DNA of 64,000 nucleotides, from the NCBI GenBank assembly GCA_963821925.1, contig CAWGFO010000001.1, positions 521,763 to 585,762 of the forward strand, in the 5' to 3' direction. The stretch is from an uncultured Actinomycetes bacterium. Lineage in GTDB: Bacteria; Actinomycetota; UBA4738; HRBIN12. The first letter of the stretch is position 1; each line of letters opens with the position of its first letter. The notes under the pieces are model-generated. The model ran no database searches. It saw only the letters and a list, made by a program, of their open reading frames with translations, and was not told the origin of the DNA. This document shows positions 4,990 through 60,666 of this stretch, one piece after another. A program made the position numbers and the translations under genes.

Positions 4990-5366
4990 GCGCGCCCCAC
5001 TCCTCCCGGCAGCTCGCCGGCCGCCCGCTGCGCCCGGAGCTCCATCGGGTGACGCCGGTACCCGTACGGGATCGCGAGCACGACGTAGACGGGGATGAAC
5101 AACGGCCCCCACGCGCAGTACTGGCGGATGTGATGCCGCTCGTGCGCAAGGAGCGTCCCCGTCACCGGCCGGGCCGACACGATCACGAACCCGATCGTCA
5201 TCGCGGCGCGGTTCGCACGCGGCATCAGGGCGGTGACGCCTCGTGGGGATCGGTCGAAGATCAGCGCCCCGTCGGTGAGGCGCGGGAGCTGGAACGTGAG
5301 CAGCCCGACGACGAGGCCGAGCAGGGTGTTCGGCAGCGTCCAGATGAAACCGAGCCAGGTGGGCAC
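4986..5366 (-). CDS. Small hypothetical membrane-associated protein with HExxH motif
   Basis: 126 aa; WTLPNTLLGL hydrophobic start, LLAHERHHIRQY motif, Y-x2-HP-x-E-x2-A; TACCGT -10-like hexamer 6 nt before the GTG. Confidence 0.65.
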   Translation of the reverse strand: MPTWLGFIWTLPNTLLGLVVGLLTFQLPRLTDGALIFDRSPRGVTALMPRANRAAMTIGFVIVSARPVTGTLLAHERHHIRQYCAWGPLFIPVYVVLAIPYGYRRHPMELRAQRAAGELPGGVGRA

Positions 5367-5461
5367 CCGCGGACGGTACCGCGCGGCCGTCTGGGACGAG
5401 GCTCGTCCCCGGCAGGTTCGTCCCCGGGGCCGGGAAGGACCGAGGGTATCCTCGTGCCGTC

Positions 5462-6868
5462 ATGACCGAGCCCACATCGCCGCCCGGGGGCGCCACGATC
5501 GAGGTCGACCCGCTCGCGGACGAGCTGGGCGCCCTGTTCGAGGCGGCCGGCCACCAGCTGTACCTCGTCGGGGGATCCGTGCGCGACCTCGTGATGGGTC
5601 GGGACCAGGGTGACGAGGCCGACCTGGACTTCTGCACCGATGCGGCGCCCCACGAGACCACGCGCGTGTTGCGCCCGTGGGCCGAGGGGATCTACCTGGT
5701 CGGTGCGAGGTTCGGCACGATCGGCGCCCGCAAGCGCGGACGGATCGTCGAGGTCACGACGTTCCGCGAGGACGTCTACGAGGAGGCGCACCGCAAGCCC
5801 GCGGTGACGTTCGCCAAGGACATCGAGACCGACCTCTCGCGCCGCGATTTCACGATCAACGCGATGGCCGTCCGGCTGCCGGGCGGCGGGTTCGTGGATC
5901 CGTTCGGCGGGGTGCGGCACCTCGCGACGAAGACGCTCGACACGCCGCTCGAGCCGGAGCTCTCGTTCGCGGATGACCCGTTGCGGATGCTGCGGGCGGC
6001 CCGCTTCGTGTCCCAGCTGGAGGTCACGCCCGCGCCCCGCGTGGTCGAGGCGATCGCACGCATGCGGGAGCGCCTCGCGATCGTGAGCGCGGAGCGGATC
6101 GGCGACGAGCTCGTGAAGCTGCTGAACGGCGCCAGGCCGTCGGCAGGGCTCGAGCTGCTCGTGGAGACCGGCCTGGCCGATGAGTTCCTCCCCGAGCTGT
6201 CGGCGCTCAGCCTCGAGCAGGACCCGGTGCACCGGCACAAGGACGTGCTCCGCCATACCTACGCCGTGGTCGAGCGGTGCGAGGCCGAGCCGACCGGGAC
6301 GCTCCGCCTCGCCGCGCTGCTCCACGACATCGGCAAACCGAAGACGCGCGAGATCACGCCGCAGGGCGTGACGTTCCATCACCACGAGGTCGTGGGCGCC
6401 CGCATGGCGGAGGCGCGCCTGCGCGAACTGCGGTTCTCCAACGCGGTGGTCGACGACGTCCGCACGCTCGTGGAGTTGCACCTGCGCTTCCACGGGTACG
6501 GCGAGGGGTGGAGCGACTCGGCCGTGCGGCGCTACGTGCGCGATGCAGGTCCTCTGTTGGACCGGTTGAACCAGCTCACGCGCGCCGACGTCACCACGCG
6601 CAACGAGAACCGAGCGAACGCGTTCGCCCGGCTCCAGGACGACCTGGAGGAGCGGATCGCACGGCTCGCCGAGCAGGAGAACCTCGACGCGTTGCGCCCG
6701 CCGCTCGACGGGCGTCAGGTGATGGAGCACCTCGACCTGCCGCCGGGACCGCAGGTCGGCGAAGCGCTCGCCTTCCTGATGGAGCACCGGATGGAGCGCG
6801 GCCCGATCGAAGAGGCCGAGGCCTTCTCCCTGCTCGACGGGTGGGCGAAGGAGCGAGGACTGCGCTAG
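5462..6868 (+). CDS. cca: CCA tRNA nucleotidyltransferase with HD domain
   Basis: YLVGGSVRD, DLDF, DLSRRDFTINAMA, DDPLRMLRAARF, SAERI-x2-E, then the HD domain (HKDVLRHT...AALLHDIGK...HHEVVGA). Confidence 0.95.
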   Translation: MTEPTSPPGGATIEVDPLADELGALFEAAGHQLYLVGGSVRDLVMGRDQGDEADLDFCTDAAPHETTRVLRPWAEGIYLVGARFGTIGARKRGRIVEVTTFREDVYEEAHRKPAVTFAKDIETDLSRRDFTINAMAVRLPGGGFVDPFGGVRHLATKTLDTPLEPELSFADDPLRMLRAARFVSQLEVTPAPRVVEAIARMRERLAIVSAERIGDELVKLLNGARPSAGLELLVETGLADEFLPELSALSLEQDPVHRHKDVLRHTYAVVERCEAEPTGTLRLAALLHDIGKPKTREITPQGVTFHHHEVVGARMAEARLRELRFSNAVVDDVRTLVELHLRFHGYGEGWSDSAVRRYVRDAGPLLDRLNQLTRADVTTRNENRANAFARLQDDLEERIARLAEQENLDALRPPLDGRQVMEHLDLPPGPQVGEALAFLMEHRMERGPIEEAEAFSLLDGWAKERGLR

Positions 6869-50477: not shown

Positions 50478-51407
50478 TCAGTAGCGGGTGCCGACGGCCG
50501 GTGGAAGCGCGTCGAGGTCCGCCCGGTCGTCGTCGTCGAGCACGATCGTGGCGGCGGAGAGGTTCTCCTCGAGGTAGCGGAGTCGCTTGGTTCCCGGGAT
50601 CGGCGCGACGTGGGGACCCTGGGCGAGCACCCACGCGAGGGCGATCTGGGCGGGGGTGGCGCCGTGCCGGTCGGCCACCGCCCGCACGCGGTCGACGATC
50701 GCGAGGTTCGCGTCGATCGCCTCGGGCGTGAACCGGGGGTTGTTCGTCCGGAAGTCCAGGTCCTCGAACGATGCCCGGGTGATCGTGCCCGTGAGGAAGC
50801 CGCGGCCCAGCGGTGAGAACGGGACGAACACGACGCCGTTCGCGAGGCACCACGGGACGACGTCGTCGAGCGCCTCGCGCGTCCACAGCGAGAGCTCCGA
50901 CTGGAGCGCCGCCACGGGATGGATCCCGCGCGCCGCCTCGAGCTGCTCGATCGTCACCTCCGAGAGGCCGAGGGCGCGCACCTTCCCGGCCTCGACGAGA
51001 CCGGCCATCGCTCCCCACGACTCCTCGAAGGGCACGCCAGGGTCGATCCGGTGGAGGTAGTACAGGTCGATCTCGTCCACGCGCAGACGGCGGAGCGACG
51101 CCTCGACCGCGCCCATGATGTGCTCGGGCCGGGCGTCGTTCACGAGTGGGTAGCCGCCGTTCGGACCGACGAGGAGCCCGACCTTCGTCGCGATCCCGAC
51201 GCGATCGCGGACGGGCTCGAGTGCCTCGCCCACGAGCTCCTCGTTCGTGAACGGGCCATAGACGTCGGACGTGTCGACGTGCGTCACGCCGAGCTCGACC
51301 GCGCGCCGGATCAGGGCGATCGGATCGTCGTCGGTATCGCCGAAGTACCCGAAGGACATCGGCATGCACCCGAGCCCGATGCCACGGAACGCGTCGCGGA
51401 GGTCCAC
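50478..51407 (-). CDS. Aldo/keto reductase
   Basis: IGLGCMPMS, DTSDVYG, IATKVG, IDLYYLHR, GLSE, PFSPLGRG, PIPGTK. Confidence 0.93.
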   Translation of the reverse strand: MDLRDAFRGIGLGCMPMSFGYFGDTDDDPIALIRRAVELGVTHVDTSDVYGPFTNEELVGEALEPVRDRVGIATKVGLLVGPNGGYPLVNDARPEHIMGAVEASLRRLRVDEIDLYYLHRIDPGVPFEESWGAMAGLVEAGKVRALGLSEVTIEQLEAARGIHPVAALQSELSLWTREALDDVVPWCLANGVVFVPFSPLGRGFLTGTITRASFEDLDFRTNNPRFTPEAIDANLAIVDRVRAVADRHGATPAQIALAWVLAQGPHVAPIPGTKRLRYLEENLSAATIVLDDDDRADLDALPPAVGTRY

Positions 51408-51482
51408 CCGGGGATGCTAGCCGGTGGCGCCGATGGCCGGCCTGCCGACCACCGAGCCCACGTCCGATGGGATGATGCCGCG

Positions 51483-52691
51483 ATGGATGAGTCGCGTCTG
51501 ACCGCGGGCGAGGTCGCCGATCGCGCGGGGGTCGAGGAGTCATTCCTCGCCGAGCTCACCGCCGTGCACATCGTGGATCCGGACGACGACGGCACGTACA
51601 CCACGGCGGCCGTCCGGCGGGTGCAGCTCGTTCGGGCCTGTGCCGACGCCGGTCTCTCGGTCGAGGCGATCGGATTGGCGCTGTCGAAGGGGACGCTGAC
51701 GCTCGCCCCGCTCGACGCTCCGCACTACGAGCGGTGGGGCGACAAGGCCGACGTCACGTACGGGCAGCTCGCGGCCCGGATCGGCGTGCCGTTCGAGTTC
51801 CTCTGCTCGATGCAGGAGGCGCTCGGCTTCGCGGCGCCCTCGGCCGACGACCGGCCCCGTCGTGACGAGATGGACACGATGCCCGTGCTCGCGGTCGCGT
51901 ACGCGCAGGGCATCGACCCCGACGCGTTGATCAGGCTCTTCCGGGTGTACGGCAACGGCCTCCGGCTGATCGCGAGCGCCGAGACCGGGTTGTGGCACGA
52001 GCACGTCGACGTGCCGCTCCAGCAGGCCGGCATGAGTCAGCGCGAGGTGCTCGAGGCGGGGTTGGGGTTCGGGGAGGCCGTGATGCCGCTGATGGACCAG
52101 GCGCTGATCAGCATGTACCGACGGATGCAGGAGACCGCCTGGATGGCGGACCTCGTGGAGCACGTGCAGATCGCGCTCGAGGAGGCCGGCGTGCACGAGC
52201 GGCTGGAGCGGCCGCCCGCGATGGTGTTCGCCGACATCTCCGGGTACACGCGGCTGACCGAGGAGCACGGGGACGAGGTGGCCGCCGACCTCGCGTCGGC
52301 GATGGCCGACCTGGTCCAGGGCACCGCCGTCCGCAACCGCGGCCAGGCCGTGAAGTTCCTCGGCGACGGGGTGATGTTCTACTTCCGCGAGGCGGCCGAC
52401 GGGCTCAGGGCCGCGCTCGACGTCGTGGCCGGCACGCCGGACGCCGGGCTCCCGCCTGCGCATATCGGACTGCACGCAGGACCGGTCGTGATGCGCGACG
52501 GCGACGTCTTCGGGCGCACGGTGAACTGGGCGGCCCGGATCTCGAGCCAGGCGGAGGCCCACGAGGTGCTCGTCAGCCGGGAGGTGATCGATGCCTCGCA
52601 AGAGGTGGGGGCGTCGTTCGAGTCGATCGGCTCGGTCGACCTGAAGGGGATCGCCGACCCGGTGGAGCTGTTCAGGGCCACGCGGGGCTGA
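51483..52691 (+). CDS. Class III adenylate cyclase with N-terminal MerR-like HTH
   Basis: LTAGEVADRAGV HTH; FADISGYT, KFLGDGVM, GLHAGPV, DVFGRTVNWAARI. Confidence 0.9.
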   Translation: MDESRLTAGEVADRAGVEESFLAELTAVHIVDPDDDGTYTTAAVRRVQLVRACADAGLSVEAIGLALSKGTLTLAPLDAPHYERWGDKADVTYGQLAARIGVPFEFLCSMQEALGFAAPSADDRPRRDEMDTMPVLAVAYAQGIDPDALIRLFRVYGNGLRLIASAETGLWHEHVDVPLQQAGMSQREVLEAGLGFGEAVMPLMDQALISMYRRMQETAWMADLVEHVQIALEEAGVHERLERPPAMVFADISGYTRLTEEHGDEVAADLASAMADLVQGTAVRNRGQAVKFLGDGVMFYFREAADGLRAALDVVAGTPDAGLPPAHIGLHAGPVVMRDGDVFGRTVNWAARISSQAEAHEVLVSREVIDASQEVGASFESIGSVDLKGIADPVELFRATRG

Positions 52692-52718: not shown

Positions 52719-53051
52719 TCAGCTCGGCCGGCTCGGGTCCTCCACCAACCGCTTCAGCCGGGCGAGGCGCGTGTCCCAGTCGGCCCCGACGTCGACCATC
52801 CAGCCCATCGCGTCCGAGAGCGGCTCCGGCGTGAACGCGTACCGCCGCCCGCGCGGCTCGAGGCCCTGCGTCGCGACCAGGCCGGCCTCCTGCAGCAGCG
52901 CGAGGTGCTTCGAGACGGCCTGCCGGGTGACCGGGAGCCGGGCCGAGAGCTCCGACAGCGTCGACGGGCCCTCCTCGGCCAGGGCCCGGATCACCGCCCG
53001 TCGGGTCGGATCGGCGAGCGCCTCGAAGACGTCGTCGGGGTCGCGGGTCAC
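52719..53051 (-). CDS. ArsR/SmtB family regulator
   Basis: [21 protein letters not shown]-x2-L-x-EAGLV, WD-x-RLARLK. Confidence 0.92.
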
Positions 53052-53419
53052 CCGCGCGCCTCGGCGGCGCCCGCCGGATGGTCGGCGGTCTCCGTGATCG
53101 TGACGATCGTGGCCTCCGCGTCCTCCGCCGGCCGCAGCTCGATCGAGACGCTCGAGGGCGCACCGACCACCAGCCCGGTGAGGCCGGCGCCGTGGAGCTC
53201 GCGCCAGCGCCAGGTCAGGCGCCGGCCGGTCTCCACCTCGGTGACGGCGCCGCGGCGCTCGCGCCCGTCGGCGAAGCGGAACCGCACCGCCGCTCCGAGC
53301 TCCGGCTCGAGCCAGGCGTCGGCACCGAACCAGGCGGAGAGCGCCGCGGGGTCCACGATGAACCGCCAGACGTCGGCCTGGGGCGCCTCGATCGTCTGCT
53401 CGTGCTCGATGGGCGGCAT
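53048..53419 (-). CDS. SRPBCC/AHSA1-like domain protein
   Basis: IEAP-x2-DVW-x2-I-x-DP-x2-L-x2-WFG, G-x-V-x2-VE-x2-RRL-x-W-x-W; AGGAG RBS. Confidence 0.85.
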
Positions 53420-53446
53420 CAGCGGCTCCTCTCGCTCGCCGTCGGG

Positions 53447-53512
53447 GACGGCAACCAGTAGGTTGCCGTCGCGAACCCACTCGCGTACGGTGTCGGCAAC
53501 CGAACGGTTGCC
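53447..53512. promoter_or_regulatory. Twin GGCAACC-N4-GGTTGCC operators between srpbcc-arsR and clpP
   Basis: GACGGCAACC-AGTA-GGTTGCCGTC (53447-53470) and GGCAACC-GAAC-GGTTGCC (53495-53512). Confidence 0.75.
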
Positions 53513-53531
53513 ATCGTATAGGAGGTCGCCC

Positions 53532-54137
53532 ATGGGCGCGAGTCAGCTGATCCCCACCGTCGTCGAGCCGAGCGAACGTGGCGAGCGGGCGTTCGACATC
53601 TACTCCCGGCTGCTCCGCGACCGCGTGGTGTTCCTCGGGGGCGAGATGGACGACGTCCTCGCGAACCTCGTCGTCGCGCAACTGTTGTTCCTCGAGGCGG
53701 AGGAGCCCGAGAAGGATGTCTCGCTCTACGTGAACTCGCCGGGGGGCGACATGACGGCGCTCTTCGCGATCTACGACGCGATGAGCGCGATCCGGTGCGA
53801 CGTCGCGACCTGGTGCATCGGCCAGGCCGCCAGCGCGGCCGCCGTGATCCTGGCCTCTGGCGCGCCGGGGAAGCGCCACGTGCTGCCGAACGCGCGCGTC
53901 CTGCTCCATCAACCGCACGGCGGGCTCCAGGGCCAGTCCGAGGACATCAGGATCCACGCGGTCGAGATCGGGCGCCAACGACGCCAGATGGAGGAGATCC
54001 TCGCGCGCCACACCGGCCAGACGGTCGACCGGATCCACGAGGACCTCGATCGGGACTTCATCCTGGGACCGGAGGAGGCGCTCGCCTACGGGGTGGTGGA
54101 CGCGATCGGCGCGCCACGGTCGGTTCCGCCGGGTTGA
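53532..54137 (+). CDS. clpP: ATP-dependent Clp protease proteolytic subunit (orphan paralog)
   Basis: [21 protein letters not shown], catalytic Ser QAASAAA, His LLHQP, Asp DRDF; AGGAGG RBS. Confidence 0.95.
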
Positions 54138-54147
54138 CGGGACGCCG

Positions 54148-54624
54148 TCACGTCGAGCCCGGATCGGGTACGTCATCGGGCTCGTCCCCCAGGAGGAACC
54201 GCGGGCCGTCGCCGAGGGCGGCCGCCGCGTCGCCGGGGTTGTAGAGGCGGCACCGGCTCAGCGAGAGGCAGCCGCACCCGATGCAGCTCGTCAGGTCGTC
54301 GCGGGTGCGCTCGAGGGCGGCGATCTGCTCGTCGATCCGCGCGCGCCAGGTGCCGCTGATCCGCGACCATTCGCGGACGGTGGGAGCGCGGTCGGCGGGC
54401 AGCATCGAGAGGGCATCGGCGATCTCCTCGAGCGAGAGTCCGACCCGCTGCGCCACCCGGATGAAGGCGATCCGGCGGAGGACATGCCGGCGGAACATCC
54501 GCCGCCCGCCGGCCGAGCGCTCCGCGGAGATCAGTCCCTCGGACTCGTAGAAGCGGAGCGCGGAGGCCGCGACGCCGCTGCGCGTGGCGACGTCCCCGAT
54601 CGGCAGCAGATCGTTCCGATCCAT
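54148..54624 (-). CDS. soxR: Redox-sensitive transcriptional activator SoxR
   Basis: LPIGDVATRSGVAASALRFYE, RRIAFIRVAQ, CIGCGCLSL-x2-C-x-LYNP [2Fe-2S] motif. Confidence 0.95.
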   Translation of the reverse strand: MDRNDLLPIGDVATRSGVAASALRFYESEGLISAERSAGGRRMFRRHVLRRIAFIRVAQRVGLSLEEIADALSMLPADRAPTVREWSRISGTWRARIDEQIAALERTRDDLTSCIGCGCLSLSRCRLYNPGDAAAALGDGPRFLLGDEPDDVPDPGST

Positions 54625-54637
54625 GTGGTCACGATAC

Positions 54638-54668
54638 TTGACTTCAAGTGAACTTGAGGTTGTAACGT
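54638..54668 (+). promoter_or_regulatory. SoxR-type promoter: -35, SoxR box, -10 with a 19-bp spacer
   Basis: TTGACT (54638-54643), CTTCAAGTGAACTTGAGG (compare the CCTCAAGTTAACTTGAGG soxbox), TAACGT (54663-54668). Confidence 0.85.
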
Positions 54669-54676
54669 CCCCCGCC

Positions 54677-55366
54677 ATGGACGTTGACCTGTCACCGCTG
54701 ACCCACGTGCGCGAGCTGATGGTGCGCGCGACCGGAGACGAGAAGCACGAGGAGAGCAGCACCTCGACGCTCGACGCGCTGTGGGTCCTGTACGACCGGA
54801 TCCTGCGGGTCGACCCGGCGGACCCGACCGCCGAGGACCGCGACCGCTTCATCCTCAGCAAGGGCCACGGGCCGATGGCCTTCTACGCGATGCTCGCGGC
54901 GAAGGGCTTCTTCCCGGAGGCGTGGCTCGACGGGTTCATGGCGTGGGGCGGACGACTGGGCTCCCATCCCGACCGCCTGCTCGTCCCGGGCGTCGAGGCG
55001 TCGACGGGGTCGCTCGGCCACGGGCTTCCGATCGCGGTGGGCGTCGCACAGGCGTTGCGCGCCAAGCATCTCGACGACCCGCGGGTCGTGGTGCTCACGG
55101 GCGACGCCGAGCTGAACGAGGGCTCGAACTGGGAGGCGATCATGCTGGCGCCTCACCTCGGGCTCGGGAACCTGACGCTGCTCGCGATCGACAACCACAG
55201 CTCGACGATCCCGATGGCGCCGTGGGACGCGAGGCTCGGGGCCTTCGGTTGGCGTGTCGAGGTGGTGGACGGCCACGACCACGTGGCGCTCGAGGCCGCG
55301 CTCTCGATCCGCGACGATCGCGTCCCGACCGCGGTCGTCGCGGACATCCCGGAGGGGGAGTGGTGA
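54677..55366 (+). CDS. Transketolase-like N-terminal (TPP-binding) subunit
   Basis: RDRFILSKGH, LGSHP, STGSLGHGL, GDAELNEGSNWEA...IDN. Confidence 0.9.
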   Translation: MDVDLSPLTHVRELMVRATGDEKHEESSTSTLDALWVLYDRILRVDPADPTAEDRDRFILSKGHGPMAFYAMLAAKGFFPEAWLDGFMAWGGRLGSHPDRLLVPGVEASTGSLGHGLPIAVGVAQALRAKHLDDPRVVVLTGDAELNEGSNWEAIMLAPHLGLGNLTLLAIDNHSSTIPMAPWDARLGAFGWRVEVVDGHDHVALEAALSIRDDRVPTAVVADIPEGEW

Positions 55367-56274
55367 CCGAGATGCGGCCGCAGCTCGCGGCCACGCTGAG
55401 CGAGCTCTTCGAACGCGACGATCGGCTCGCGATCGTCCTCGCGGAGATCAGCACCGATCTCTTCCGCGGTCCCCGCCGGCTCGATCCTGCGCGCGCGGTG
55501 AACGTGGGGATCATGGAGGCAACCATGGTGGGGGTCGCCGCCGGATTCGCGATGGAGGGGTTCCATCCGGTCGCGCACACGATCGGTCCCTTCATGGCCG
55601 AGCGTCCGCTCGAGCAGCTGAAGCTCGACTTCGGCTATCAGGGGCTCGAAGGCACGTTCGTGAGCGTGGGCGGCTCGTACGACTACGGCGCGGAGGGCGG
55701 CACGCACCACGCGCCCGGCGACGTCGGGGTGATGGCGACGATCCCGGGTATGGAGATCCTGGCCCCGGGAACGGCCGCCGAGGCCGATCGACTCGTGCGC
55801 GCGATCTACGCGAACGGGCGCTCGTCCTACCTGCGCGCGAGCACCGCGCAGAACGAGGTCTCGTTCGAGGTCGACCCGGGGCGGCTCGAGGTCGTCCGCC
55901 AGGCCACCCAGGAAGACGCGCCGGTCGTCGTCGCCTTCGGTCCGATGCTCTCCCGGACCCTCCAGGCGGCCGAGGGCCTCGACGTGACCGTCGCGTACGC
56001 CACGAGTGTCGTGCCGTTCGACGCGCCGGGGCTCGCCGCGATCGCCGGTGACCACCCGCACCTGATCGCGGTCGAGCCCTGGTACGAGGGCACGGTGACC
56101 GGCACGCTCGCGGCCGCCGTTGCCCACGTGCCGAGCCGGATCGACGCGATCGGTGTCCCGCGCCGGTTCCTGCGCGACTACGGCACGGCGGCCGAGCACG
56201 ACCGCGACCTCGGACTCGACGCCGACGGCATCGGTGGTCGACTGCGCTCGATCCTCGCCGGCCGCGCCGCCTGA
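55363..56274 (+). CDS. Transketolase-like C-terminal (pyrimidine-binding) subunit
   Basis: NVGIME, EQLKLD, GGTHH, PG-x2-ILAP, YLR, IGVP; GTGA overlap. Confidence 0.9.
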   Translation: MTEMRPQLAATLSELFERDDRLAIVLAEISTDLFRGPRRLDPARAVNVGIMEATMVGVAAGFAMEGFHPVAHTIGPFMAERPLEQLKLDFGYQGLEGTFVSVGGSYDYGAEGGTHHAPGDVGVMATIPGMEILAPGTAAEADRLVRAIYANGRSSYLRASTAQNEVSFEVDPGRLEVVRQATQEDAPVVVAFGPMLSRTLQAAEGLDVTVAYATSVVPFDAPGLAAIAGDHPHLIAVEPWYEGTVTGTLAAAVAHVPSRIDAIGVPRRFLRDYGTAAEHDRDLGLDADGIGGRLRSILAGRAA

Positions 56275-56276
56275 TC

Positions 56277-56834
56277 TCAGCCGGGCGAGCCGAACGCCCG
56301 GAAGGGCTCGGGCTCGTAGGTGTCGAGGAACGCCACCCACTCGGGCAGCGCGTCCCGCACGGCCTCGTCGTCCTTCACGAGCCACGACAGGTGGCGGAAG
56401 GCGTGCTCGATCACCTGGTCGACGCCGATCTCGGGGGGAGGACCCATCGCGTCGCCGCGCGCGAGATCGGCTCGCCGCACCGGCTCGTCGGCGAGGTGCT
56501 CGTTCAGGTGGTCGGGCACCGAGACGGCCACGACGTAGGTGAGGACGACGCGCGCGTCCTCGTACCGCCACGAGGTGGAATGCACCAACAGCGGCTGGAG
56601 CCCGTAGCGCGTCGCGGCCGCCGAGACGATCTCGCCGGGCTGGCGGTCGGGGCGCCATCCGATCCGGAGCGTCTCGGCATGGATCGGCCGGAGGTGGTGT
56701 GCGCCGTCGCTCCTCAGGGAGACGAACAGCGCCTCGATCGTCTGCGCGACGAGCTCGCGCGACCAGCCCACCTTCGTGAGCGCCGGCACCCACTCGATCA
56801 CCGGCGGACGATCCGCGTCGGAGCCGGGCGCCAC
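56277..56834 (-). CDS. Conserved-looking hypothetical protein (HSTSWR motif)
   Basis: 185 aa, high-GC3 codons, last gene of the cyclase-STAND operon. Confidence 0.65.
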   Translation of the reverse strand: MAPGSDADRPPVIEWVPALTKVGWSRELVAQTIEALFVSLRSDGAHHLRPIHAETLRIGWRPDRQPGEIVSAAATRYGLQPLLVHSTSWRYEDARVVLTYVVAVSVPDHLNEHLADEPVRRADLARGDAMGPPPEIGVDQVIEHAFRHLSWLVKDDEAVRDALPEWVAFLDTYEPEPFRAFGSPG

Positions 56835-57827: not shown

Positions 57828-60666
57828 CTATCGCAGCCGCTCGGCCTCGGCCTGCGCCGCCCGCCGGAAGCGCTCGTCGGCGGCGGCGCGGTCGCCCCGC
57901 TTCTCGGCCACGCGCGCGAGCGCGCGCCAGGTCCAGCTCGCGAGCTGACGTTCGCCGAGCTCCTCGGAGATCCGGATCGCCTGGCGCAGGTCGTCCTCGG
58001 CCTCGTCGAGCCGGCCGAGTTCACGGAGGACGATGCCGCGTTCGGCCAGCGCGTCGCCGAGCTCCCACCGCGCCCCCAGGTCCGAGAAGACGACGATCGC
58101 GTGCTCGAAGTCGGGGAGGGCGTCCTCGTACTCCTCCTCGTCCTCGTGCAACCGCGCGTGCTGGACGCGCGCGACGGCCACGCTGAACAGGTCGTCCATC
58201 TCCTCGGCGAGCCGGCCCGCCTCGTCGATCAATGCCTTCGCTTCGTCGTAGGCGTCCATGTTCTCGGCGTTGATCGACAGCGCCGTGAGCGCCCGCACCT
58301 CGGCCCACCGGTCGCCGTGCTCGCGAGCGATCTCGAGCGCACGGCGCCAGATCGGATCGGCCTCCTCGTAGCGGCGCCGCGTCCATGGGATCCACCCGGT
58401 GAACAGGAGCGTCCGCACGATCGCCCACGGGTCCTCGAGCGCCTCCGCGGCCGCCAGCGACCGCGCGAGCAGCGTCTCTGCCCGCTCGAGGTCACCGTCG
58501 ACGTTGTTCGCGATGTCCCCCAGGAACCGCAATGCGTGCGTCAGGGTCCAGTGATCGTGCAGCGTCGTCCCGAGGTCGACGGCCCGGTCGAGCACCTCGA
58601 CCGCGCCCGGGTACTCCCCCAGCCAGTAGCGGGCCTCGCCCAGGCCCGCCAGGACGCGCGCCTCGCGGACGCCGTAGCGCTCGTCGTCGCCGGCGAGCGA
58701 GAGCGCCCGCGCGTAGTAGTCGACGGCGCCCCGGTTCTCCATGCGACGTCGCTGCCGGTCGCCGGCTTCGGCCAGCGCGGCCACGGCGCGATCGGGGACC
58801 GTCCGGTCGGCCGGATCGAGGTCGATCGAGGCGAACGCGGCGCGTTCGAGGTGCGCGGCCGCGTAGGTCGGCTCCAGATCCTGGAGCGTGTCGGCGATCG
58901 TCAGATGCAGCTGGAGTCGGAGCCGCTTCGGCAGGCTCGCGTACGCGACGTCGCGGAGGGTCTCGTGACGGAACCGCCATCGGGGCGAGCCTCCGCCGAG
59001 GTCCGGGACGACGAGTTCGGCGTCGACCAGCTGATCCATCGCGTCGGCGCTGCAGTCGGCGACGAGCGCCGCCTCCTCCGCGTCGAATGAGTACAGGTAG
59101 ACGGAGAGCCGCCGCGCCAGCTCGCGCTGATCGCTCGGCAGGCTGTCGAGGCGCGCCGCGATCACGGCCTGCACGGTCGGCGGCAGTGTTCCCTCCGACC
59201 CGGCGCTGGTCGCCTCGCCGCGCCCGAGCAGCATCCCGGTGGTCTCGACGATGAAGAAGGGGTTCCCACCGGCGCGCGCCGCGATCGTTCGAGCTTCCGC
59301 TTCGAGGATCCGCGGGCCACCGGCCTGTCGCGCGAGCGCGACGGCGTCGTCGTCGCCGAGGGGCTCGAGGTGCAGCAGGACGTGGTTGGCGGCGCGCGAG
59401 CCCCACCCCGGGCGGGCGTCGAGCAGCTCGGGACGCGCCGCGGCGAGGACGGTGGCCCGTCCGGGGCTCTGGCTCGCTCGGCCCGCGAGCCGCTCGACCA
59501 GGTCCATCATCGGCGCGCGCATCGCGTGCACGTCCTCGAACAGGAGCGTGACCGGGGCCTCGGTCGCGAGCGCCGCCACCATCGACAGGACGCCCGACTG
59601 GACCTCCTGGATGAATGCGGACTCCTCGCGGCGCTCCGCCGCCAGCCCGAGCGCGAGCGCCAGGCGCTCGGCCGTACGGTCGGCCTCGTCGCCGTCGCTC
59701 CATCGCTCGACGAGCTCACGGAGCCGGCGGAGCGACGTCTCGCCCGGCTCCCCGTGCTCGATGCCCGCCGCCTCCCGCACGATCGTGGCGGCCGGAGCGA
59801 ACGTCGCGCTGCCCGAGGCGAGCTGACCCCGCCCGACCAGGACGTTCCCGGGGTGCTCGATCCCGGCAAGGAACTCGTCGGCGAGCCGCGACTTCCCGAT
59901 CCCCGGTTCGCCGATCAGCGTGACGAGCAGCGGCCGCGACGTCGCCTCGACCCGCGCATGGGCGTCCCGCAGGAGCGTGAGCTCGTTCGCCCGCCCCACG
60001 AAGGGGATCGTGCGCCGCGCCGTTCGCGGCGTGAGCCCGTCGACGGGATAGGCGACGAGCGGCTCCGCGAACCCCTTGGCCAGAACGTCGCGCCGGTCGC
60101 CGAACGAGACGGCGTGCTCGGTGAGCGCGAACGTCGTCGCGCCGGCGAGGACCTCGCCGGGCTGCGCGGCGGTCTGCAGCCGGGCGGCCGCGTTCACGAC
60201 CGGCCCGGTCACGAGGAGCTGCCCGGACGGACCGACGCCCGTGGCGGCCTCGCCGGTCTCGACACCGACCCGGACGTCGAGGGGCTGATCGAGCCCGAGC
60301 TCCGCGGCGAGTCGACGGGTGTGACCCCGGATCGCGAGTCCCGCCCGTACCGCCCGCGCGGCGTCGTCCTCGTGGACGTGCGGCAGCCCGAACACCGCCA
60401 TCACGGCGTCGCCGATGAATTTCTCGGGCTGGCCGCGGAGCGCACGCAGCTCCTCGGTCACGGCGTCGTAGAAGCGGCCGAGCACCTCCCGTGCGCGCTC
60501 GGGGTCGAGGCGCTGCGCGAGCGCGGTCGACTCCGACCAGGTCGGCGAAGAGCACCGTCACGAGCTTGCGTTCCTCGGTGCCGAGCGACGAGCCCACGAC
60601 GGTGCCGCAGTTCGGGCAGAAGCGCGCGTCGTCGGGGAGCGGCTCGCCACAGACGGTGCAGGTCAT
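57828..60666 (-). CDS. Double zinc ribbon + class III cyclase + AAA (STAND) + TPR protein, frameshifted at about 60533
   Basis: CTVC..CPNC; ERKLVTVLFADLVG, then (one extra base) STALAQRLDPE..EKFIGDAVMAVFG..VNAAARLQ; FVGR, GEPGIGKSRL, FEDVH; helical repeats. Confidence 0.88.

Follow-up and report, generated by a model that had tools for sequence, protein, structure and literature searches.

The 64,000-nucleotide stretch of DNA analyzed here, termed the window, belongs to an uncultured Actinomycetes bacterium (contig CAWGFO010000001.1). Within it, a gene for the redox-sensing regulator SoxR stands back to back with two genes that encode the half chains, alpha and beta, of a transketolase-like thiamine-diphosphate enzyme. 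The short space between them carries a soxbox. The features of this locus are, in order of position:

54148-54624, minus strand: soxR, MerR-family activator that senses redox state and has a [2Fe-2S] motif; 158 amino acids, with a TIGR01950 match and the motif CIGCGCLSLSRC
54630-54635, minus strand: candidate -10 hexamer (TATCGT) of the promoter of soxR itself, 5 nucleotides before the soxR ATG, read from the sequence
54638-54643, plus strand: -35 hexamer (TTGACT) in the promoter of the enzyme operon; CTTGAC is nearly invariant across 30 aligned promoters
54641-54660, no strand assigned: soxbox, a 9-2-9 inverted repeat, ACTTCAAGT-GA-ACTTGAGGT, in the 19-nucleotide spacer; a conserved block with unconserved flanks
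54663-54668, plus strand: -10 hexamer TAACGT, 8 nucleotides before the alpha-chain ATG
54677-55366, plus strand: alpha chain, the diphosphate-binding domain of the short transketolase-like thiamine-diphosphate enzyme; 229 amino acids, PF00456 match at 1.8e-29
55363 or 55372 to 56274, plus strand: beta chain, the pyrimidine-binding and C-terminal domains; PF02779 (Transket_pyr) and PF02780 (Transketolase_C)

The product of 54148-54624 is a true SoxR. In a profile search it scores 193.5 bits against the equivalog model TIGR01950, for which the cutoff is 116.9, and four cysteines near its C-terminus form the C-X2-C-X-C-X5-C motif of [2Fe-2S] ligands. The corresponding cluster motif, C(I/V)GCGCLSLxxC, is kept in all 27 of the SoxR homologues that are encoded beside the enzyme genes in related loci.

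The enzyme operon is preceded by TTGACTTCAAGTGAACTTGAGGTTGTAACGT at 54638-54668, which begins thirteen bases past the soxR start codon and comprises the -35 hexamer, a 19-nucleotide spacer and the -10 hexamer. The arms of the soxbox palindrome occupy 54641-54649 and 54652-54660. With 3 mismatches tolerated, the soxbox occurs once in the 64 kilobases and in none of 100 shuffles, while the generic pattern TTGAC-N20-TANNNT occurs once in the window compared to 0.08 expected occurrences. The site agrees at 16 of 18 positions with CCTCAAGTTAACTTGAGG, which we take to be the soxbox consensus. A sigma-70 promoter scan of the region returned no site, because that scan permits spacers of 16–18 nucleotides only and so misses a promoter with a 19-nucleotide spacer. 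When the promoters of related loci are aligned on the -35 hexamer (n = 30), they have in common the block CTTGACTTCAAGtGcACTTgAA.TtgTA.gGT; conservation extends over the box and both hexamers but not to the flanks.

No Shine-Dalgarno sequence or other ribosome-binding site precedes the alpha-chain ATG (54677), which lies 8 nucleotides past the -10 hexamer, and the two-gene operon mRNA is for this reason probably leaderless; in the aligned promoters the ATG follows the -10 hexamer by 6–9 nucleotides. On the other strand, the position of TATCGT close to its ATG suggests that the soxR mRNA is leaderless as well, and the candidate -35 region of soxR would lie beneath the soxbox, which might permit autoregulation. 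A 157-nucleotide metatranscriptome contig matches the soxR/alpha intergenic region exactly and covers it, although whether it originates from RNA or DNA is uncertain; the metatranscriptome contigs on this region are short, undirected and mostly derived from relatives.

The basic layout had been described in an earlier note on this DNA, made from the sequence alone: soxR divergent from two thiamine-enzyme half genes, a soxbox inside a TTGACT/TAACGT promoter with a 19-base-pair spacer, and an N-terminal subunit that is short and has GDAE in place of GDGE. Each of these descriptions agrees with the profile matches, the shuffling and the Pfam boundaries reported here.

The arrangement is found well beyond the window. 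Scanning the prokaryotes at one genome per species yielded 80 related loci (numbered here with the prefix L), and the counts that follow refer to these and the window together, 81 in all. Nearly all of the 80 come from uncultured Actinomycetota of soil, wetland and sediment, including Gaiellales and Thermoleophilia. A divergent soxR is present in 26 of the 81 loci, and every one of these 26 has a soxbox-like site. SoxR divergence follows enzyme divergence closely (Mantel r = 0.89; none of 2000 permutations reached this value), and the pairing of soxR with the enzyme genes is not due to chance. A divergent regulator of the ArsR/SmtB type occupies the place of soxR in 28 loci, two (L035 and L039) have an intact box with no adjacent soxR, and a third such locus (L043) has a decayed box. 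Other arrangements make up 23 loci, and one is cut by a contig end.

A soxbox in this position could, in principle, serve only the autoregulation of soxR, with the enzyme genes as constitutive neighbors. Divergent MerR-family genes are commonly autoregulated, and the box does overlap the likely soxR promoter. However, it is placed exactly between the -35 and -10 hexamers of the enzyme promoter, in the diagnostic 19-base-pair spacer, and it is retained before enzyme genes that have no adjacent soxR. In a deep branch of the family (L071-73, 54–57% identity), soxR and a csbD-like gene form an apparent operon (about 5135-5930). The csbD gene there lies between soxR and the box, which stands at the enzyme promoter about 340 base pairs from soxR.

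The same separation is seen in cultured relatives. Proteins of Streptomyces have 56% (alpha) and 42–45% (beta) identity to those of the window, and a soxbox lies directly before the alpha gene of this type, 38 nucleotides from its ATG, in S. clavuligerus, S. rimosus, S. pristinaespiralis and S. scopuliridis. In S. rimosus the box comes together with a divergent soxR; in S. clavuligerus it is accompanied by an upstream MFS gene, with soxR elsewhere. In S. pristinaespiralis, S. scopuliridis and a record labelled S. albus subsp. albus, the box is found 38 nucleotides before the ATG in all three cases, and only the S. albus subsp. albus record has an adjacent MerR-family gene. The box is thus kept where soxR is not adjacent, and it therefore travels with the enzyme genes and not with soxR. 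The view that the box serves soxR alone was rejected on the placement of the box, and we regard it as barely credible. Direct control of the enzyme pair by SoxR, as proposed in the earlier note, is very likely on comparative grounds, and it is strongly supported because the box is conserved, the 19-base-pair spacer is conserved, and the box tracks the enzyme genes where soxR is located elsewhere. The conserved neighborhood of soxR and the pair is part of this support.

In the enzyme tree, the ArsR-linked loci essentially form one clade and the SoxR-linked loci another, the latter with repeated local losses of soxR, and the deep outgroup is SoxR-linked. Several promoters look like remnants of the soxR-linked form. 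In L004 (5213-6001), an SDR gene before the pair replaces the left half of the box and the right half remains; in L002 (5482-6001), a glyoxalase-family gene now stands in front of the pair; and in L037, L040 and L043 the arrangement TTGAC-19 nucleotides-TACGGT is retained with a decayed palindrome. These five loci bear the scars of lost SoxR control.

The loci with an ArsR-type regulator (L014, L016, L018, L045-L065 and others) are mostly from Gaiellales and Thermoleophilia. Their promoters contain a conserved CTATATAG-centered sequence about 50–70 nucleotides before the enzyme gene, and the ArsR/SmtB regulator of the sister lineage has an ETCACDF motif at the position of the CxC that senses arsenite and cadmium. 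The substitution of ArsR for SoxR is a clean exchange of regulators, with the operon itself conserved.

The alpha chain encoded by the first enzyme gene matches Transketolase_N but not DXP_synthase_N in Pfam. Its match to PF00456 covers profile positions 26-227 of 334, while canonical split N chains extend to about 260–276, and the replacement of GDGE by GDAE is a family trait found in 70 of 78 relatives. Its best match in the Protein Data Bank (PDB) is the N chain 6yak of the split transketolase of Carboxydothermus hydrogenoformans (144.9 bits). The AlphaFold model has a pLDDT of 90.3, and its top fold matches in Foldseek are transketolases only. The alpha chain has no ferredoxin domain, and no P450 gene is adjacent in the window.

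The beta chain may begin at GTG 55363, which overlaps the alpha stop codon (GTGGTGA), or 9 nucleotides later at ATG 55372, which is Met4 of the predicted protein P0003 and lies 5 nucleotides past the alpha stop. The true start is probably ATG 55372, since Met4-Arg5 is invariant in the 34 homologues aligned, and the position of a GGAG sequence also favors it. In a single-sequence search the beta chain scores 63–64 bits to 6yaj, the beta chain of the C. hydrogenoformans enzyme, and to DXS alike; when a family profile is used, the scores are 132.6 bits for 6yaj, 122 for DXS, 76 for human transketolase and 41–49 for PDH E1-beta. Its AlphaFold model has a pLDDT of 90.9, and the closest fold is that of DXS (TM 0.86), followed by human transketolase. 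By Pfam, AlphaFold and Foldseek, the pair has all three domain folds of transketolase (PP, Pyr and C-terminal).

The active site was assigned by sequence alignment and is given in E. coli transketolase numbering. In the alpha chain, H24, H64, H97, G142, D143 and N173 are invariant. The three histidines are the equivalents of His26, His66 and His100, and the motif GDA-X28-N keeps the Asp, the Asn and the 28-residue spacing of the transketolase GDG...N, with the second Gly changed to Ala. In the beta chain, R5 (Arg358), E52 (the cofactor-activating Glu411) and H115 (His473) are invariant or nearly so.

Other parts of the site differ. The alpha chain stops near E. coli residue 248, about 13 residues short of His261, and the segment that bears His261 is absent. 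The beta family motif GGSYDY..EG.THH has Gly at the position of His461. At the position of Asp469, the window chain has Glu, that of S. clavuligerus has Gly, and Fas3, the beta-like protein of Rhodococcus fascians, has Phe. The Arg520-type position of the beta chain is Thr or variable and is not conserved; the family has YLRTSxAxN at this position (Arg474 in human numbering), compared to what we take to be FIRTSRPEN in human transketolase. At the level of signatures, GDEKH..S.S, GDAE and GGSYDY..EG.THH stand for GHPGG, GDGE and THxxxxxGEDGxxHQ. The beta loop 107-112, which bears the altered residues, is the sole low-confidence part of the model.

Some of these changes could be taken to mean that the pair is catalytically dead or degenerate, namely the Gly-to-Ala change in the Mg/diphosphate motif, the lost His261 segment and the low-confidence beta loop. 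Such a loss of function is most improbable, as both chains are under strong purifying selection, with 53 (alpha) and 39 (beta) invariant columns that include the cofactor ligands (counted over 33–34 homologues, down to 44–54% identity). In addition, the alpha chain occurs in more than 100 Streptomyces species at 83–90% identity to the S. clavuligerus protein (among the matches listed), and GDS or GDA variants are known in other active thiamine enzymes. The idea of a pseudo-enzyme was rejected on the invariant cofactor ligands. It seems, then, that the cofactor chemistry is intact and that the sugar-phosphate pocket is not, a combination that argues against a housekeeping transketolase. The substrates are probably other than the usual sugar phosphates, because the enzyme lacks His461, the segment that bears His261 and the phosphate ligand of the Arg520 type.

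Phylogeny places the pair accordingly apart from known transketolases. In a tree with canonical split transketolases as the outgroup, the window, the family of metagenome-assembled genomes, S. rimosus, L071-73 and the Fas2/Fas3 proteins of R. fascians form one clade with a Shimodaira-Hasegawa-like approximate likelihood ratio (SH-aLRT) support of 100. For the beta chain, the match to FasC (Fas3) reaches 184 bits and that to the canonical split beta chain 6yaj 63, a threefold difference. The pair is a member of a short transketolase/DXS-like clade separate from the canonical split transketolases, a comparison the earlier note had also had in mind, and it is best filed as an uncharacterized member of this clade and not as a transketolase. 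In a tblastn search of plasmid records, the short pair was likewise found both in Streptomyces, at 56% identity, and in R. fascians, at 49%.

Two further groups of sequences were considered and set aside. A locus from Asanoa (L075), which had the look of a cultured relative, encodes a split transketolase of the canonical kind within a biosynthetic cluster. Fusions of an alpha-like domain with methyltransferase, PfkB and GNAT domains have N domains of canonical length, occur in sugar-modifying clusters, fall outside the short clade and offer no clue to function.

The enzyme might nevertheless be an ordinary split transketolase that SoxR raises under redox cycling for pentose-phosphate recycling and NADPH. 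The alpha-chain score to 6yak, the exclusive transketolase folds at the top of its list, the invariant equivalents of His26, His66 and His100 and a diphosphate motif spacing equal to that of transketolase are all in keeping with this, and the SoxRS response of E. coli raises zwf and thereby NADPH. On the other hand, the pair belongs to a separate clade, and its alpha chain falls about 13 residues short of the His261 position. In its beta chain Gly stands for His461, the Arg520-type residue lacks conservation, and the residue at the Asp469 position differs among clade members. The beta chain is also as close to DXS as to transketolase, and Streptomyces carry the pair in addition to the transketolase of the pentose-phosphate operon. 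An ordinary transketolase is therefore unlikely, and to judge from its residues the enzyme is probably not a housekeeping one. The earlier note had offered two functions, an induced pentose-phosphate flux or the modification or detoxification of quinones or phenazines. The first is weakened by the position of the pair outside the canonical split transketolases and by the missing sugar-phosphate-binding residues; the second is taken up below.

A link between SoxR and a gene annotated as a transketolase is not new. A footnote in a 2014 paper on the S. coelicolor SoxR regulon lists S. avermitilis SAV_1623, a 'putative transketolase', as having a conserved SoxR site (PMC4146615), and His6-SoxR was found in 2021 to shift the sav_1623 promoter in a gel shift assay (PMC8867992). 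The regulatory part of the window is in this sense ordinary and was documented before in S. avermitilis, and the window is a further example of a known SoxR switch, here driving an uncharacterized enzyme. The list of characterized SoxR targets given in the earlier note (soxS, efflux pumps, monooxygenases and reductases) is incomplete, as sav_1623 is also a target (PMC4146615, PMC8867992).

The locus as a whole is probably best explained as a SoxR-switched operon for an accessory, non-housekeeping thiamine-diphosphate enzyme of the short clade. A SoxR dimer would bind the 9-2-9 palindrome in the over-long 19-base-pair spacer. Redox-cycling compounds, such as quinones, phenazines and viologens, would oxidize the SoxR cluster and the spacer would be untwisted, in line with the MerR-type mechanism in which the oxidized regulator untwists an over-long promoter spacer. 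The oxidized SoxR would then activate the leaderless two-gene operon, and SoxR would probably also repress its own promoter. The alpha and beta chains are expected, by analogy with 6YAK, to form an alpha2-beta2 tetramer, and the resulting enzyme would act as an accessory stress enzyme of the short clade in the transketolase/DXS superfamily.

Several observations weigh against this explanation. In about a quarter of the related loci, soxR and the box are both missing beside the pair, so that such control is not universal. The residue assignments are based on alignment, with the key beta loop 107-112 modelled at low confidence, and the typical transketolase histidines of the alpha chain are all present, which is compatible with ordinary ketol transfer. 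Deletion of soxR in unstressed S. avermitilis raised the sav_1623 transcript and did not lower it (PMC8867992). This increase fits repression by reduced SoxR and does not demonstrate activation, and the membership of sav_1623 in the short clade is presumed from other Streptomyces species only.

The nearest named relatives of the pair, FasB and FasC of R. fascians, are described as functionally unknown accessory proteins, perhaps there to 'provide energy' (PMC4092121). At L083 (4761-6620), FasB is a ferredoxin joined to a short alpha chain, followed by the matching FasC. A search of the literature for transketolase-ferredoxin links found nothing relevant. Other genes found scattered beside the pair in related loci encode glyoxalase-family, SDR, AhpD-like and P450 proteins. 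The FasB fusion, the ArsR swap and these neighbors fit a role against redox-active or thiol-reactive small molecules, and action of the window enzyme on quinones or phenazines is a possibility to which the FasB ferredoxin fusion lends indirect support by analogy.

A more specific and rather doubtful suggestion is that enzymes of the FasB/FasC type are thiamine-diphosphate donor:acceptor oxidoreductases and not ketol transferases, and would pass the two enamine electrons to a quinone, phenazine or ferredoxin. A small donor, such as a 2-oxo acid or a non-phosphorylated ketose, may be cleaved or decarboxylated in the process. Transketolase and E1 enzymes do reduce artificial dyes in standard assays. 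Such a reaction would explain the SoxR control, the swap to a cysteine-bearing ArsR-type regulator and the ferredoxin fusion of FasB beside a P450. If it were true, redox-cyclers could be fully reduced independently of NAD(P)H and so disarmed.

SoxR regulons outside enteric bacteria are small and are thought to handle redox-active antibiotics. The thiamine enzyme pair would be among the most widely conserved of the local SoxR targets, occurring in lineages of soil metagenome-assembled genomes and in more than 100 Streptomyces species. Its reaction, once found, would fill a gap in how actinobacteria handle quinones and phenazines, and might establish an activity new to the transketolase/DXS superfamily. 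The closest named relatives, FasB and FasC, have an unexplained place in the hormone operon of a plant pathogen.

The surroundings of the pair in the window include a small cluster adjoining soxR, a conserved gene directly downstream and two large open reading frames:

50919-52691, plus strand: large open reading frame with the look of an adenylate/guanylate cyclase-domain signalling protein, from reading of the translation only
52719-53051, minus strand: ArsR-family regulator, in the small cluster adjoining soxR
53048-53533, minus strand: AHSA1/SRPBCC protein, in the same cluster
53532-54137, plus strand: stand-alone ClpP-family protease, in the same cluster
56277-56834, minus strand: conserved protein of 185 amino acids without a Pfam match, encoded directly downstream from the pair
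57828-60485, minus strand: large open reading frame with a cyclase-domain look and apparent ATPase and TPR-like repeats, from reading of the translation only

The trio of ArsR, AHSA1/SRPBCC and ClpP genes is found on the opposite side of the enzyme pair in L034. Homologues of the 185-amino-acid protein are encoded near the pair in L035 and L039, where they adjoin a P450 gene.

Among known enzymes, the split transketolase of C. hydrogenoformans (6YAK/6YAJ) has the same two-chain architecture and the same folds as the window pair. However, its alpha chain exceeds the window alpha chain by about 50 residues and carries GHPGG and GDGE, and its beta chain has THAGLTVGEDGASHQ. DXS provides the best fold matches for the window beta chain, and the window loop GAEG.TH resembles the GADG.TH of DXS. 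It differs in being a single chain with another domain arrangement, and its phosphate-binding Arg position is not conserved in the window beta family.

FasB and FasC (Fas2 and Fas3), encoded on R. fascians plasmid pFiD188 in its fas operon, have 49% (alpha) and 38.5% (beta) identity to the window proteins. The alpha chain of FasB is shortened in the same way as that of the window, and FasC has in common with the window beta chain the loop signature G.SYD...(T/S)H..PGD. In contrast, FasB has an N-terminal ferredoxin fusion and a P450 neighbor in a cytokinin operon, neither of which the window pair has; it retains GDGE and has Ala at the His100 position. No soxbox was found in the R. fascians fas promoter.

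With respect to regulation, sav_1623 of S. avermitilis resembles the window in that a soxbox precedes a gene annotated as a transketolase. In most of the Streptomyces examined, soxR is not adjacent to the pair, whereas it is divergent in the window. The E. coli soxR-soxS control region and the soxbox promoters of Pseudomonas aeruginosa and S. coelicolor resemble the locus described here in a divergent soxR, in a palindrome of 18–20 base pairs centered in a 19-base-pair spacer between the -35 and -10 hexamers, and in the SoxR cluster motif. This locus differs from them in that both of its mRNAs are probably leaderless, and in that its target is a thiamine-diphosphate enzyme operon instead of soxS or a pump, monooxygenase or reductase gene.

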